Shown here in pieces: positions 1,609-10,826 of a stretch of 64,000 nucleotides of DNA; position 1 is the first letter of the stretch; every line of letters begins with the position of its first letter. The translations under genes and the position numbers were made by a program. The notes under the pieces are model-generated. The model had not been told where the DNA came from and did no database searches. It worked only from the letters and a program-made list of their open reading frames with translations. Origin of the DNA: a virus; IMG/VR virus record IMGVR_UViG_3300049218_000295, positions 64,001-128,000 of that record. One strand, 5' to 3'.

Positions 1609-1631
1609 CCAATATTACGTCTAAAGTAAAT

Positions 1632-1815
1632 CAGTTGGGTGACCGACTGTAGAGTCTAAGTTTGGGCTTCCAGCCGCACTTTTTCTCTCCGACTCTTTGG
1701 GGGACGTTCCGTCGCCGCAAGAGGTTACTGAGTTGGATTGCAGGCCACCAGGTATTAGGAAACGACTCTCAGCGTTTCGCATATCGGCCAGAAACCAAAA
1801 ATGCTAACTAGGAGA
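1632..1815 (+). ncRNA. putative structured leader or ncRNA upstream of the VWA gene
   Basis: Unusually long (214-nt) intergenic gap; stems CAGTTGG-GTGA-CCGACTG (GNRA loop), AGAGTC/GACTCT, GGCT/AGCC, GACG/CGTC and CTGAG/CTCAG. Confidence 0.45.
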
Positions 1816-1822
1816 TATTACC

Positions 1823-3499
1823 ATGAAACTGTCTACGAAATTTGATTACTCGTCTGTCGCTTACAACGTCGATAACACAGTGCATTTGCTTGTCCAGGCA
1901 ACGGCACCCAAACTCGATCTTGAAAAGAATCGCGTTCCGCTTAACCTTGTTGCCACACTCGACGTTTCACCATCTATGTATGGTGCGAAAATTGAGTATG
2001 CTCGCAAGTCTCTAATGAAACTCATCGACCATTTGTCACCTAACGACACCCTAGGTCTTGTGTCCTTTGACTCCGACGTCCGTACTTTGGCCCCTGTGAC
2101 CAAAATGGACCAGAAAGCCAAAGACAACTTGAAACAAATTGTCCAGAAAACTGGCATCGGTGGTGGCGGAACGAACCTATCAGGAGCAATGCTTGAAAGC
2201 ATTCGGCATGCAAACCAAATTGATGGGGCTTCTCGGGTGATTTTGTTCACTGATGGGCAACCAAATGTTGGTGTTCGGGAACCGGATAAACTGTCGGACC
2301 TTTTGCGCCAAAACATGCGCAAGAACCTGAGCCTCACCAGTTTCGGTTATGGAAATGACCATGATGCCAATTTGTTAACCGCTCTCGCGGAAATTGGCAA
2401 AGGAAACTATGCTTATCTACAAAATCCTGATGATGCTCTTACCGCATTTGCACGGGAACTTGGAGGATTGCTTTCCTGCTACGGACAAAATCTCAAATTT
2501 GCGATTACGCCAAAAGAGAAGACTGAAATCCTCGAAGTCATGAGCGACGTCGACGTGGAAGAGATTCCAGAAGGCGGAGTTCTGGTTTCGGTCGCGGACC
2601 TTTATAGTGAAGAAACCCGAAACATCGTCCTCAAAGTGAAACTTGATCGCCAGCCCAAATCCCACCCACGTGCGACTTCGGTTGCTGAGGTCGTTCTCAA
2701 GTATGATCGCATGCCTGAGGGCAAGCGCCAAACCGAGGATGTGCGGGCCAAAATACAGTTTGTAAAGGTGCAGGACGTACAGAAAAACGCGGACCAAGAG
2801 GTAGTGGACCAAGTTGGTCTTTGCCAACTTATGAAAGCACAGGAAGAAGCAACGGTTTATGCGGCTTCCGGAAATCTTTCTATGGCCAATTCCGTTCTAA
2901 ACAGCACTACTTTGGGTGTTCAAGGCGTCTTTGGAGCTGCGGGACCACAAGGTGCTTCTGGGCTAGTTGGAGCAGCTATGGCTACCACGCAAGGCTATTA
3001 TGCGGACCAGGCCTCCTTTACTAACTCAGTGCACCTGCGAGCAGCAAGTGCACATTCACATTCAACAGGTCGCGGTAGTCACACTTCCAATATGGGGCTC
3101 TACACGACAAATACCGCAATGGCAAGTATGGTGGATGCTTTCAAAGCAGATGATGACCAGCTCAACGACGCGCTGAACAGTCATAACCATTCGCTTGGGT
3201 CGGCAGGAGCGCCAGGTATCAGCAGTCACACCCACAACCCTGGTTTAGCCTCCGGTACAATTACGGGCGGGCAGGGCATGTCGGGTATTGGGGCTATCCA
3301 ACTTGACCAGAGCCGAATTGGCGGTGGTTTCAATAACTCTATTGGAAGCACCACAGGCACGCTGGTTTTGAACAATGGGATTGGTGGCGGTGGTATCGTT
3401 CATTGTGCAGATAGCACTGTGACAGTGCAGCCTGCTGAAACCAAGGTCACCGAAAGCAAAGCCAGCAAGACCAAATCCCGTTCTAAAAAGGAGTGGTAA
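1823..3499 (+). CDS. von Willebrand factor A domain protein (YfbK/CLCA-like) with Gly/Ser-rich low-complexity tail
   Basis: MIDAS DVSPS, GGTNL, LFTDG and FGYG motifs; SD GGAGA. Confidence 0.9.
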   Translation: MKLSTKFDYSSVAYNVDNTVHLLVQATAPKLDLEKNRVPLNLVATLDVSPSMYGAKIEYARKSLMKLIDHLSPNDTLGLVSFDSDVRTLAPVTKMDQKAKDNLKQIVQKTGIGGGGTNLSGAMLESIRHANQIDGASRVILFTDGQPNVGVREPDKLSDLLRQNMRKNLSLTSFGYGNDHDANLLTALAEIGKGNYAYLQNPDDALTAFARELGGLLSCYGQNLKFAITPKEKTEILEVMSDVDVEEIPEGGVLVSVADLYSEETRNIVLKVKLDRQPKSHPRATSVAEVVLKYDRMPEGKRQTEDVRAKIQFVKVQDVQKNADQEVVDQVGLCQLMKAQEEATVYAASGNLSMANSVLNSTTLGVQGVFGAAGPQGASGLVGAAMATTQGYYADQASFTNSVHLRAASAHSHSTGRGSHTSNMGLYTTNTAMASMVDAFKADDDQLNDALNSHNHSLGSAGAPGISSHTHNPGLASGTITGGQGMSGIGAIQLDQSRIGGGFNNSIGSTTGTLVLNNGIGGGGIVHCADSTVTVQPAETKVTESKASKTKSRSKKEW

Positions 3500-3500
3500 A

Positions 3501-3806
3501 ATGCACATCCAAAATTGCATTGTTCCGCTCCAAATAGGGTGCGGATGCGGTGGACTTGCATGCAGTTGCCAGAATAAGGTCCGCACCAAATGCGGGGCCT
3601 GTCCCAAGTGCGGTGCCCCAATCTATGAGGTCTCGCAGGTAACGTATCAGTGGTGGGGGTACAACCATTCGAAGCCGCAGATTGAATACAGTTGCGCTTG
3701 CAGGTTTGACTACTGCGCCCCGTGTATTCCAGCAATACCGCTTAAAATCACAGTCGAGTATCAACCACGCAAGCTATCAAAGAAAAGAAGTGGAAAAGAG
3801 TGGTGA
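3501..3806 (+). CDS. Cys-rich putative metal-binding protein
   Basis: 12 Cys (CGC, CSC, CGACPKC, CAC, CAPC); starts 1 nt after the VWA stop. Confidence 0.7.
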   Translation: MHIQNCIVPLQIGCGCGGLACSCQNKVRTKCGACPKCGAPIYEVSQVTYQWWGYNHSKPQIEYSCACRFDYCAPCIPAIPLKITVEYQPRKLSKKRSGKEW

Positions 3807-3809
3807 AAT

Positions 3810-3836
3810 GAGGCCCCGGCGAGCTGCCGGGGCCTC
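3810..3836. terminator. hairpin between convergent genes, probable bidirectional terminator
   Basis: Perfect 11-bp stem GAGGCCCCGGC/GCCGGGGCCTC with a 5-nt loop. Confidence 0.7.
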
Positions 3837-3841
3837 CATCT

Positions 3842-4036
3842 TTAGGCAGATTTGCGGCGTTGAGCATGAAGCTCATTGTCGACTTCTTCGGCAATGTCCT
3901 CACCGTTCTCTTCTGCGGCTGCCTTGCCAAGCTCAATGAGCTTTTTCGTAGTAAGACCGCCGCGTTTGCCGTTCTCGGCCAAATAGCGACGGACTTCATC
4001 TGTAACCATACCATCGTCTGTTTGTTTCTTTGCCAT
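3842..4036 (-). CDS. small KGG-motif / SASP-like protein, paralog 1
   Basis: AENGKRGGLTTKKLIELG; SD AGGAG; aligns with the neighbouring gene. Confidence 0.8.
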   Translation of the reverse strand: MAKKQTDDGMVTDEVRRYLAENGKRGGLTTKKLIELGKAAAEENGEDIAEEVDNELHAQRRKSA

Positions 4037-4047
4037 TTGCTTTCTCC

Positions 4048-4251
4048 TTATGCCGCACGTCGGCGGTTTCGTTGCGTTTGTTCGACTTCGCTTGCTACGT
4101 CCTCGCCGCTTTCAATCGCGGCTTGTTTTCCGAGTTCGACAAGACGGCGCGTCACAGCGCCACCTTTTTTCGCTCCCAGCTTTCCGTTCTCTGAAAGAAA
4201 ACGGCGGATTTCGGGCGTCAGCTTTTCGCTTTGCATTGCCTTTTTTGCCAT
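4048..4251 (-). CDS. small KGG-motif / SASP-like protein, paralog 2
   Basis: ATG 4251 after GGAGG; SENGKLGAKKGGAVTRRLVELG. Confidence 0.8.
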   Translation of the reverse strand: MAKKAMQSEKLTPEIRRFLSENGKLGAKKGGAVTRRLVELGKQAAIESGEDVASEVEQTQRNRRRAA

Positions 4252-4368
4252 ATGTGATACCTCCACCTTCAAAAATGCAATACCCGCGCCAAACATCGCG
4301 AACGGTCTCGACGCGATGTACTACACTCAACGTGGACATTCGTTATGTTAAAAGGGAAAGGAGGGCCT

Positions 4369-8840: not shown

Positions 8841-10826
8841 TTGGCGTCCCACTCTCGTGCTCTGATTTTTGATACCAAGGGCAATGTCTTACTCGGCCTC
8901 GAAGCCCACTCACAAGAGTATGGTCTGGTTGGCGGCCATTGCAAAGAAAATGAACACCCTGTCGACGCTTTGCTGCGTGAAATCCACGAAGAGACTAAAC
9001 TCGGACCCAATTTCCGCCATCTCGAATATCTAAGAGACTACCTCGATAATTCAATTTTTCTGGTTATTGTCGACCCACCCCCCGCCATTCCGGACCCATC
9101 GCAGGACCCAGACTGTGAATTTTTGTCTTTCATCTGGGCTGACCCTGCCCATCCTCCCGATAATATTTCGGAGTTCGCTTCCGATGTTCTTTTCCATTAC
9201 TTATGTGGACTAGTGGGCAAAGTTACTGCTTCAGTGCAATGGAGTGATTACGTCAAAGGTGAATGGTGGCTGACCAAAAACGGCTCAGAATTCGCTGATA
9301 TTGACGCAGGAGACGCTGGGCATGAACAAATTGCGCTCCAAAACCTTCTAGGTGAACATTTCGACGAGTTTAAAGAAGCTCTCGACCCTAATGATAAAGA
9401 CAAGAACCTTCAAGAAACTGACGATTTAGTGGCATATTACTGGAACGAAGGGAAAATACCGGACGACGTAGGCTCTAAGATCATGGGTCCGGAGTTATGG
9501 AAAGACCTTAAAAGTGACGTCCGTCTAGCTTACGCCAAACATCGCGGCGCAATTCTAGCTATTGATTTTAATTTTGCGGCCTATAAGGTCACAGCAAATA
9601 CTATCTCAACCATTCAAGACCATATCTATGAACAGGTCTCGGGCTCCGAAATTTCGGAGCTTGAGGGTGATGTTACCGTCGTCGTAGAAGAGTATTCCAC
9701 AGGTAAGTCGTCCAGCCTACCGGTCAATGATTTCTTAAACATCAAGAACCCCGGCCAGCTTTGGCGAGCTGTAGCTGGTGTAATCGAAGTCCTAGTAGAC
9801 GGTGAAAAAATTGGTGAGTTCGCGGACGACCAGGTTTGGGAAACTATTCCTAGACTGGCCCAGGAGCGAGCTAGGGGCAAAAAGGTCTCCTTCAGACAAG
9901 TTCTTGATTCGGGCGAAATTGTTGATATGAACTTGGGTGTCGGATTGCCGGGTCTCTCTGAATCTGCTATCAACGACCTAGAATCTGCGATTGATGAATT
10001 TCGAGACCACCAGGCCGACTATGTAGGATATCTAAAAATGACTGACAGCGTAGCCCAGGACCTACGAAATGATTTGGAAAGAGCAGATCGCATCCCAATC
10101 TACCGCTGTGTATCCTTTGATGATAAAGATTTGTTTCTTAAAGGTCTGCAGTCTCATGGGACGGGAATTTTTTGGTCCTTCAACCCGGACAAAGCGGTTT
10201 GCTATTGGGGCGACAAAGACAACCCCTTTTACGCTATCCTAACGGGCATAGCGGGTGATTCTGTCGATTGGCTCGGAACTGTTGAGCAACACATGCGACC
10301 TTCCACAGCCGGGGAAGATGAAATTCGCCTCTTGCCGCACAAATCTGTCCAAGTAAAAGAAGTCGAAATCTTCGAGCGTTCTACTAGAGAATCTACAGTG
10401 GTCCCTATCAATAAACGCCTGAACACTGGAAGTCGTGAACAAGATAGAAGCGAGCCACCCGCCCAGCTTTCTGCGTCGCTAAGCCTTGAAGGTGTAATCC
10501 TAAAGATCGTGAACTATTACTTCGAGAACTACTTCGGCGTTGATTGCCCGCAAATTCTAGTAACGACAATAACGACCTCTGAGCCTTGGCTAGCAAAGAC
10601 CGAAAACTCGGATAAAGGTATCGAGTTGATTGTTAATAGGGCTATCGCACAAGTCCCGAAGGTCCTGAAGCAGGCAGTAGCACATGAATCAATACACATA
10701 TTTCTGTATTCTCAGGGCAAGTTCGAAGACCCACACGGCTCTGAATTTAGTAAGTGGGCCGAGATTATCAACTCCGACGAAGGACCCAATTACATCTCCA
10801 AAACCGCAAACGAGACGTCCTTCTAA
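8841..10826 (+). CDS. polyvalent protein: NUDIX + unknown + ADP-ribosyltransferase-like + SprT-like metalloprotease
   Basis: Nudix box GGHCKENEHPVDALLREIHEET; IYR...FWS...EDEIRL (R-S-E); HESIH...HGSEF; SD AAGGAGG. Confidence 0.75.
   Translation: MASHSRALIFDTKGNVLLGLEAHSQEYGLVGGHCKENEHPVDALLREIHEETKLGPNFRHLEYLRDYLDNSIFLVIVDPPPAIPDPSQDPDCEFLSFIWADPAHPPDNISEFASDVLFHYLCGLVGKVTASVQWSDYVKGEWWLTKNGSEFADIDAGDAGHEQIALQNLLGEHFDEFKEALDPNDKDKNLQETDDLVAYYWNEGKIPDDVGSKIMGPELWKDLKSDVRLAYAKHRGAILAIDFNFAAYKVTANTISTIQDHIYEQVSGSEISELEGDVTVVVEEYSTGKSSSLPVNDFLNIKNPGQLWRAVAGVIEVLVDGEKIGEFADDQVWETIPRLAQERARGKKVSFRQVLDSGEIVDMNLGVGLPGLSESAINDLESAIDEFRDHQADYVGYLKMTDSVAQDLRNDLERADRIPIYRCVSFDDKDLFLKGLQSHGTGIFWSFNPDKAVCYWGDKDNPFYAILTGIAGDSVDWLGTVEQHMRPSTAGEDEIRLLPHKSVQVKEVEIFERSTRESTVVPINKRLNTGSREQDRSEPPAQLSASLSLEGVILKIVNYYFENYFGVDCPQILVTTITTSEPWLAKTENSDKGIELIVNRAIAQVPKVLKQAVAHESIHIFLYSQGKFEDPHGSEFSKWAEIINSDEGPNYISKTANETSF

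Follow-up and report, generated by a model that had tools for sequence, protein, structure and literature searches.

A basic, tryptophan-ended C-terminal tail shared by a phage von Willebrand factor A protein family and its coupled cysteine-rich partner

Two coupled phage genes end in the same tail

The window analysed here, a 64,000-nucleotide stretch (positions 64,001 to 128,000) of the 168,948-bp viral genome IMGVR_UViG_3300049218_000295, carries near its start a short operon in which a structured leader RNA precedes a gene for a von Willebrand factor A (vWA) protein, itself directly followed by a translationally coupled open reading frame (ORF) for a small cysteine-rich protein (the Cys protein) and by a hairpin (Table 1). 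A sequence-only reading of this DNA had proposed that the two proteins share a basic C-terminal tag, and the ORF translations agree: the vWA protein ends in KASKTKSRSKKEW and the Cys protein in RKLSKKRSGKEW. The Arg and Ser codons of the two tails differ, as had also been stated (CGT TCT versus AGA AGT).

Table 1. Features of the vWA operon, in window coordinates.
Feature	Position	Strand	Description
Structured leader RNA before the vWA gene	1630..1800	+	GNRA-capped stem and three further helical domains
vWA protein, 558 aa	1823..3499	+	Split beta-sandwich, vWA domain with intact metal-binding site, helical domain, linker, basic tail
Codons for the vWA tail KASKTKSRSKKEW	3458..3496	+	Basic, Ser-rich run and final Trp in 159/180 homologues
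AAGGAG Shine-Dalgarno of the Cys ORF	3488..3493	+	Read from sequence; falls within the vWA tail's K-E codons
Small Cys-rich protein, 101 aa, 12 Cys	3501..3806	+	CxxCxxC knuckle (KCGACPKCGAP), translationally coupled, tagged
Codons for the Cys-protein tail RKLSKKRSGKEW	3768..3803	+	Most conserved segment of Cys-protein alignment A3
11-bp G+C-rich hairpin closing the operon	3810..3836		Common to the convergent minus-strand gene

When a position matrix built from the tails of 111 homologues, with the Cys ORF excluded, was used to score every stop-to-stop frame of 30 codons or more in the 168,948-bp genome (3197 frames), the Cys ORF ranked first (23.6) and the vWA gene second (19.9), against a 99.9th percentile of 10.1. 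The third-ranked frame (17.6; genome positions 146949-147062, 37 codons) overlaps longer frames, is probably a chance match and was rejected as a third tagged protein. Among 17,238 ORFs of 136 related loci, scores of at least 15 were reached only by vWA genes and the small Cys ORFs adjoining them, and no other ORF of the genome or of the 8-kb flanks of the 136 loci bore the tag. A degenerate DNA pattern of the tail gave matches at control level only in an Anaeromyxobacter chromosome, and in four phage contigs of 0.4-0.5 Mb matched only the vWA gene, where its tail fitted the pattern. The search of the proteome and of relatives that the sequence-only reading had called for thus confines the tag to the vWA family and its Cys partner. 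Its inference of a general sorting or packaging tag was not supported: no other carrier was found in the genome, the four contigs or the Anaeromyxobacter chromosome, a tag found on no other protein is not a general sorting tag, and the idea that many proteins use it was dropped because pattern scans stayed at control level. The tag is a real, selected C-terminal short linear motif.

The tail is a hallmark of the vWA family

A database search yielded more than 160 homologues of the vWA protein, and a further 80 and 53 loci came from scanning collections of genomes and of viruses; a first viral scan with a single protein query gave no matches, and megablast and tblastn detected no close relatives in the annotated phage collection. 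The tail was examined in 180 homologues from large phage contigs, Myxococcota and Acidobacteriota, and 159 of them end in Trp after a basic, Ser-rich run, with the consensus h-S-K-[KS]-[KR]-S-x-[RQED]-W. Counted from the C terminus, position -4 is Ser or Thr in 72% of tails and position -9 is Leu, Val or Ile in half; the last 12 residues hold 4-6 Lys or Arg as well as the Trp, and the whole stands at the far end of a disordered linker of roughly 100 residues, rich in Ala, Ser and Gly. In the Cys-protein alignment A3 the tail (consensus PPxKxLAKKRSxxEW) is the best-kept part of these proteins. Absence of the tag from homologues of either protein had been named beforehand as grounds for doubt, and it is found in homologues of both.

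Codon usage and residue choice bear on how the two tails of a genome came to be alike. Among ten vWA/Cys pairs, only 12 of 46 identical tail residues share a codon (Trp excluded). Since the codons differ across these pairs, recent duplication or gene conversion between the two tails is ruled out as the cause of their likeness, and the earlier claim of selection on the peptide stands. At position -2, the residue before Trp, the two tails of a genome agree in 10 of 12 pairs (E/E, Q/Q, D/D, R/R; permutation over seven lineages, p ~0.005). The pairs that differ are those of the related loci L001 (E/Q) and L174, in which the vWA protein ends in S-W and its partner in E-W-R.

The partner is a conserved small gene that public gene calls mostly miss

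Twelve genomes carry a small Cys-rich ORF directly 3′ of the vWA stop codon (the window, L001, L002 (L002/L003), L141, L138, L140, L173, L174, L098, L099, L114 and L084), and 11 of the 12 partner ORFs end in the tag; the exception, L174, ends in REWR, with an extra Arg after the Trp. In the window, the ATG of the Cys ORF lies one base past the vWA TAA. The synteny common to the window, L001 and L002/L003 runs from a clamp-loader AAA+ gene through a DUF2786/DUF7168 gene, the vWA gene and the Cys ORF to a 177-aa gene; the Cys ORFs of L001 and L002/L003 end in SLSKKRSGRQW and KLAKKRSSKEW, and AAGGAGTGGTAA is invariant in L001 and L002. Among the window, L001 and L002, synonymous sites of the Cys ORF are saturated (proportion of synonymous differences, pS, 0.72-0.87; of nonsynonymous differences, pN, 0.23-0.34), and the ratio of nonsynonymous to synonymous substitution rates (dN/dS) is ~0.12 for the single pair in which dS is computable. 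Judged by these substitution patterns, the Cys ORF is a real gene under purifying selection, which counts against the suggestion that the second ORF might be an untranslated, decayed duplication.

At least 6 of the 12 partner ORFs are uncalled in public annotations (L002 3684-4010; L138 9498-9746; L140 1587-1934; L141 7541-7822; L173 4573-4869; L174 4550-4849). The records concerned come from JGI, Logan and ENA, the L002 gene having been missed by JGI, and protein databases hold almost no homologues of the Cys protein because gene calls omit these ORFs. The analysis thus reveals a partner gene that public gene calls mostly miss.

A word-index search and an exhaustive HMMER profile search with the Cys protein returned nothing beyond the query, two relatives and one zinc-ribbon repeat protein, whose match runs through the CPxCGA knuckle; the profile search contributed one further small protein, P0122, and recovered the L084 ORF again as P0123. 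An ESM Atlas feature search gave only unnamed viral clusters with weak scores, and no Pfam model matched. The AlphaFold2 model of the protein is of low confidence (predicted local distance difference test (pLDDT) 49), with a hairpin at residues 25-48 only. Zinc ribbons are defined by two knuckles of CxxC type, carried on beta-hairpins and together binding one Zn; the Cys protein has CxxCxxC and further Cys pairs in a fold predicted with low confidence, and on this sequence pattern it is probably zinc-ribbon-like.

The pairs fall in the two earliest-branching clades of the vWA tree, one with E-W or Q-W tails and one with D-W tails, and in one crown member, L084. The pair may therefore be ancestral and have been lost later.

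Fusion of the two ORFs by read-through or frameshifting was considered and rejected: the frame offset differs among the window, L001 and L002, and read-through fusion is therefore not a conserved feature. In L001 (4470-4478) the Cys ORF is in frame with the vWA gene, with only TAA GCC between them; the frames differ in the window and L002. In L114 (~9440-9494) the vWA frame shifts near its end, and a tail KKRSGSDW lies in the other frame just before the Cys ORF, reflecting either a sequencing error or a real frameshift.

An ArnB- and Sec23/24-like core

Pfam VWA (PF00092) matched residues 41-203 of the vWA protein at 68 bits against a cut-off of 23.8. The MIDAS (metal-ion-dependent adhesion site) comprises D47-x-S49-x-S51, T117 and D144; in a 45-sequence alignment (A1), D47, S49 and S51 are conserved at 90% or more, and T117 and D144 are invariant. 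The motif was present in 159 of 159 tailed homologues. The AlphaFold2 model (mean pLDDT 81) begins directly with a strand of the beta-sandwich and is laid out as strands at residues 2-27, the vWA domain at 41-217, the beta-sandwich at 219-314 and helices at 325-452, with no helix predicted after 452. The linker (456-545) is disordered and falls below pLDDT 50 (block means 34-41), unlike tail residues 546-553, which are not among the segments below 50.

The top Foldseek match was the ArnA/ArnB complex 8s05 (E 1e-21; identity to ArnB ~16%), with further matches to an actinobacterial vWA protein of unknown function (4fx5, E 3e-21), an ArnB paralogue (5a8j, E 2e-18), inter-alpha-inhibitor heavy chain 1 (6fpz and 6fpy, E ~1e-16) and Sec23/24 (E ~1e-12; 11-14% identity). 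Model and matches together give the three-domain core of ArnB and Sec23/24, a vWA domain with a split beta-sandwich and then a helical bundle. In the ESM Atlas the whole core (template-modelling score by model 0.68-0.75 over residues 1-446 to 1-502) also occurs fused to RING, FHA, macro or ADP-ribosylglycohydrolase domains.

Pfam gave generic VWA models only, with no match to ArnB_C or another family-specific profile, and PHROGs, NCBIfam and PADLOC returned no specific family for the query proteins; the best NCBIfam match, to a sortase target, reached 60 bits against a cut-off of 552. Known C-terminal sorting signals (LPXTG, PEP-CTERM, MYXO-CTERM and similar), which go with an N-terminal signal peptide, a signature motif, a hydrophobic helix and a basic C-terminal cluster, were not recognized in the vWA protein, where a sandwich strand comes first and disordered linker precedes the tail. 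We conclude that these cytoplasmic vWA proteins, with their ArnB/Sec23-24-like core, form a family that had not been characterised and that the tail motif marks. A tethered basic tail with a terminal Trp is thus a simple, testable hallmark that defines a widespread and unannotated protein family of ~160 members.

ArnA and ArnB, which repress motility in Sulfolobus acidocaldarius (PDB 8S05), are among the closest known systems. ArnB in that structure consists of a split beta-sandwich, a vWA domain and a helical bundle, and the ArnA zinc finger binds its beta1-beta2 loop, linker and helical bundle; the ArnB core has been likened to Sec23/24 and to the plant WAV3 RING ligases (PMC12852372). The phage vWA protein has the same three-domain layout, and its gene adjoins that of a partner with a zinc-binding type of Cys cluster. 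However, the phage partner is a stand-alone protein of ~100 residues in which no similarity to the ArnA sequence could be detected, neither it nor the neighbours (nine annotated contexts) showed an FHA, kinase or phosphatase domain, and no shared C-terminal motif is reported for ArnA and ArnB (PMC12852372). The inner-coat core of COPII, Sec23/Sec24, likewise combines a trunk (vWA), a beta-barrel and a helical core with a zinc finger alongside. There the zinc finger is fused and a gelsolin domain follows, whereas the phage encodes its Cys-rich element in a gene of its own, coupled to that of the vWA protein, whose core runs out into a disordered linker with a basic tail; the likeness to Sec23/24 is structural only. 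Plant WAV3-type RING-vWA E3 ligases also carry the full three-domain core with a zinc-binding RING alongside, but they and the bacterial FHA-, macro- and ADP-ribosylglycohydrolase-vWA proteins are enzymatic or reader-domain fusions. We know of no basic, Trp-terminated tail on such RING, FHA, macro or ADP-ribosylglycohydrolase fusions, among which it was not looked for.

The sequence-only reading had called the two proteins unrelated. This is correct for their folds, but an ArnB/Sec23-24-like scaffold typically works with a zinc-finger element, and the pairing with the Cys protein is therefore probably not arbitrary, by analogy. The same analogy, together with the gene coupling, suggests that the small protein may be a zinc-finger partner of the ArnB-like core. 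A complex prediction for vWA residues 1-455 with the Cys protein scored 0.01 and speaks neither for nor against an interaction. Neither the fold class nor the general theme of a zinc element beside a vWA core is new, and the phage pair is here tied to that ArnA/ArnB and Sec23/24 theme. Searches of Pfam, PHROGs, NCBIfam, PADLOC, Rfam and the literature consulted turned up neither the shared basic Trp-ended tail nor the stand-alone coupled Cys-rich partner nor the leader RNA described below.

A covarying leader RNA opens the operon

The gap 5′ of the vWA gene measures 214 nt and holds the leader RNA (~170 nt), a single copy in the genome that is 87-91% identical among the window, L001 and L002 even though the synonymous sites of the adjacent genes are saturated. 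Diverged copies lie directly 5′ of the vWA gene in L141 (5827-5984), L173 (2789-2977), L174 (2819-2983) and L138 (7823-7985). In an alignment of seven sequences, pairing holds in 93% of cells, against ~40% in slid controls, and compensatory changes occur at 38 of 52 pairs; these counts lean towards structure because the alignment was fitted to the structure model. No Rfam family matched at the gathering or E-value threshold, and no leader was found 5′ of vWA genes in the D-W clade, L084 or the crown group. By its covariation and its lack of a match in Rfam the leader is a strong candidate for a new class of cis-regulatory RNA.

The hairpin that closes the operon has a centroid fold of -26.8 kcal/mol (z -3.5), and L001 and L002 also have hairpins 3′ of the Cys ORF. 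Covarying leader, vWA gene, coupled Cys ORF and strong hairpin recur together, in line with the earlier claim of a self-contained module. The AATG that follows the second stop codon might open a third coupled ORF, but this idea was rejected, such an ORF being unconserved and overlapping the hairpin.

A proposed docking peptide and a possible polyanion anchor

Only two kinds of receptor come into question for the tail: the vWA protein, or some component universal to cells. We lean, short of thinking it probable, towards reading the tail as a tethered docking peptide, by which both proteins would be drawn to a single acidic site, with the vWA core as its likeliest location. The terminal carboxylate could complete metal coordination at the MIDAS face, or the peptide could bind the groove between beta-sandwich and helical domain, equivalent to where the ArnA zinc finger binds ArnB. 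Through its own tail the vWA protein would self-associate or be autoinhibited, and the small protein would be recruited to, or compete at, the tail-binding site. Shared peptides of this kind have precedents in the sliding-clamp-binding tails of unrelated phage T4 proteins and the acidic tip of the single-stranded DNA-binding protein SSB, in which one short C-terminal peptide docks unrelated proteins at one site of a hub. Those tails are hydrophobic or acidic and borne by many proteins, whereas the phage tag is basic, Trp-ended and limited to one vWA family and its partner. Docking at the MIDAS would have an analogue in the C3b-factor B proconvertase, in which C3b, through its C-terminal carboxylate, serves as a ligand to the Mg2+ in factor B's MIDAS (PMC11130238), although those proteins are extracellular, of animal origin and without a basic tail.

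A receptor tied to the vWA core is favoured because the tag occurs on vWA-family proteins and their Cys partner alone, because the motif is more specific than simple charge requires and because the -2 residue co-varies within pairs. It is favoured, too, because the core is acidic and the tail basic (mean net charges -9.4 and +4.9), because tail residues 546-553 stay at or above pLDDT 50 and because the vWA gene lacks conserved neighbours. Mutual information with average product correction (MI-APC) adds a further reason: tail position -2 couples most strongly with three helical-domain positions of the core (330, 341 and 417), and positions -9 and -4 couple with core positions 8 and 10 in the beta1-beta2 loop. 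By analogy these five positions would lie on the surface that the ArnA zinc finger contacts on ArnB, and for ArnA-like binding at the beta-sandwich/helical surface these couplings and the gene coupling are indirect indications only, the fold of the small protein being of low confidence.

Several observations weigh against docking on the vWA core. The couplings reach only the 99.9th percentile of the core-core background and stem for the most part from a single basal-versus-crown split together with one nested Q-W clade, so that phylogeny may explain them; R417 is constant within the basal group while tail position -2 varies there, and a charge-swap partner for -2 at core 417 was rejected as mostly the clade split. 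Members without a tail keep an intact MIDAS and thus give no sign of a joint loss of the two. In more distant relatives from Bacteroidota and Cyanobacteria the aromatic residue is not terminal (NYxIRKKK, YQSYNKRRSRP), an arrangement that speaks against a Trp carboxylate being required universally and is in keeping with looser binding to polyanions, and the L174 pair breaks the pattern with S-W on the vWA protein and E-W-R on its partner. If the tail does bind the protein's own MIDAS or groove, this would be a compact instance of a vWA scaffold that is autoinhibited or assembled by way of its tail, and the tail would serve well as an affinity handle.

The main rival is a polyanion anchor. Polybasic tails can target proteins to membranes, and a polybasic, Ser-rich tail with one aromatic residue (4-6 Lys/Arg among its last 12 residues, plus Trp) might bind anionic phospholipids or nucleic acid, its long flexible linker tethering the vWA scaffold and the small partner to the inner membrane or to DNA or RNA. 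A universal target of this sort would fit the spread of the tail over phages of many habitats, Myxococcota and Acidobacteriota without a conserved partner gene, as well as the distant relatives that retain a basic and aromatic C terminus in another order; the Sec23/24-like core acts at membranes in eukaryotes, which is an analogy only. However, Ser at -4, a hydrophobic residue at -9 and a terminal Trp are more than electrostatics demands, the basal clades place Glu or Asp beside the terminal carboxylate, the -2 residue co-varies between the two tails of a genome, and no other protein of the searched genomes bears such a tail. We consider an anchor of this kind, including its tethering role, somewhat unlikely.

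Two further explanations are both very doubtful. In the first, an idea of the sequence-only reading, the basic tails would bind the leader RNA, leading to autoregulation of the operon or to an RNA-protein particle. In seven lineages the leader lies directly 5′ of the vWA gene, followed by the tagged Cys ORF, and basic tails with an aromatic residue are plausible RNA binders. Yet the leader was not found in the crown group, the D-W clade, L084 or Myxococcota, all of which keep the tail, and what the tail does therefore cannot depend on the leader RNA. In the second, a conserved host machine such as an AAA+ protease adaptor, an unfoldase or a chaperone would read the tail and set the stability or handling of both proteins. 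C-terminal basic signals of the MuA type are recognized by ClpX, and a host target would make both tails of one phage change together, but a general degron should mark other proteins too, and no such protein came to light in the searched genomes, nor was any protease or chaperone gene consistently linked in annotated contexts.

That the likeness reflects no shared function (chance, a Shine-Dalgarno by-product or an untranslated, decayed duplicate of the vWA 3′ end) is scarcely credible and already largely refuted: AAGGAG in the vWA tail does double as a ribosome-binding site, and AATG follows both stop codons in the window, but vWA genes lacking a downstream ORF also keep the tail, spelled in different codons, the AATG behind the second stop is missing from L001 and L002, the Cys ORF shows conservation at the low dN/dS given above, and the two tails hold the top two ranks in the genome.

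The docking peptide can be extended to a three-part phage module, in which a novel leader RNA would control a Sec23/24-ArnB-like vWA scaffold and a zinc-ribbon partner that assemble on one another through their shared Trp-ended peptide, with the carboxylate at the MIDAS. We regard this full picture as improbable. If true, the module would be a self-assembling coat-like or switch-like complex, possibly feeding back on its own leader RNA, and would bring a new class of C-terminal docking motif together with a new cis-regulatory RNA.

Distribution and genomic setting

The tailed family spans phage contigs of up to ~660 kb, Anaeromyxobacteraceae and other Myxococcota, and one Acidobacteriota metagenome-assembled genome. 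In a quick tree the bacterial tailed vWA genes (L004-L020 and L137) nest inside phage sequences, and this nesting suggests that tailed vWA genes have moved between phage and host. Neighbours of the vWA gene vary widely, with none conserved in annotated contexts; in one Anaeromyxobacter contig they include WYL/PafC-type regulators, a UvrD helicase, a PDDEXK nuclease and an ADP-ribosylglycohydrolase. More distant vWA relatives from Bacteroidota, Cyanobacteria, Clostridia and Actinomycetota (L023-L083) carry other conserved basic C-terminal motifs with an aromatic residue (among them S-x-N-Y-x-I-R-K-K-K for Bacteroidota and Y-Q-S-Y-N-K-R-R-S-R-P for Cyanobacteria), and to judge by these endings a basic C terminus with an aromatic residue may go back further within this vWA superfamily.

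Between the closing hairpin and the 177-aa gene, the window carries two paralogous small genes on the minus strand (3842-4036 and 4048-4296; 64 and 82 aa), which have no counterpart there in L001 and L002 and therefore look like a lineage-specific insertion. In the genome as a whole (G000), the vWA operon has a clamp-loader/replication block on one side and, on the other, a long series of large ORFs on the plus strand. The contig is estimated to be 66% complete, and the phage is therefore probably a jumbo phage of ~250 kb.

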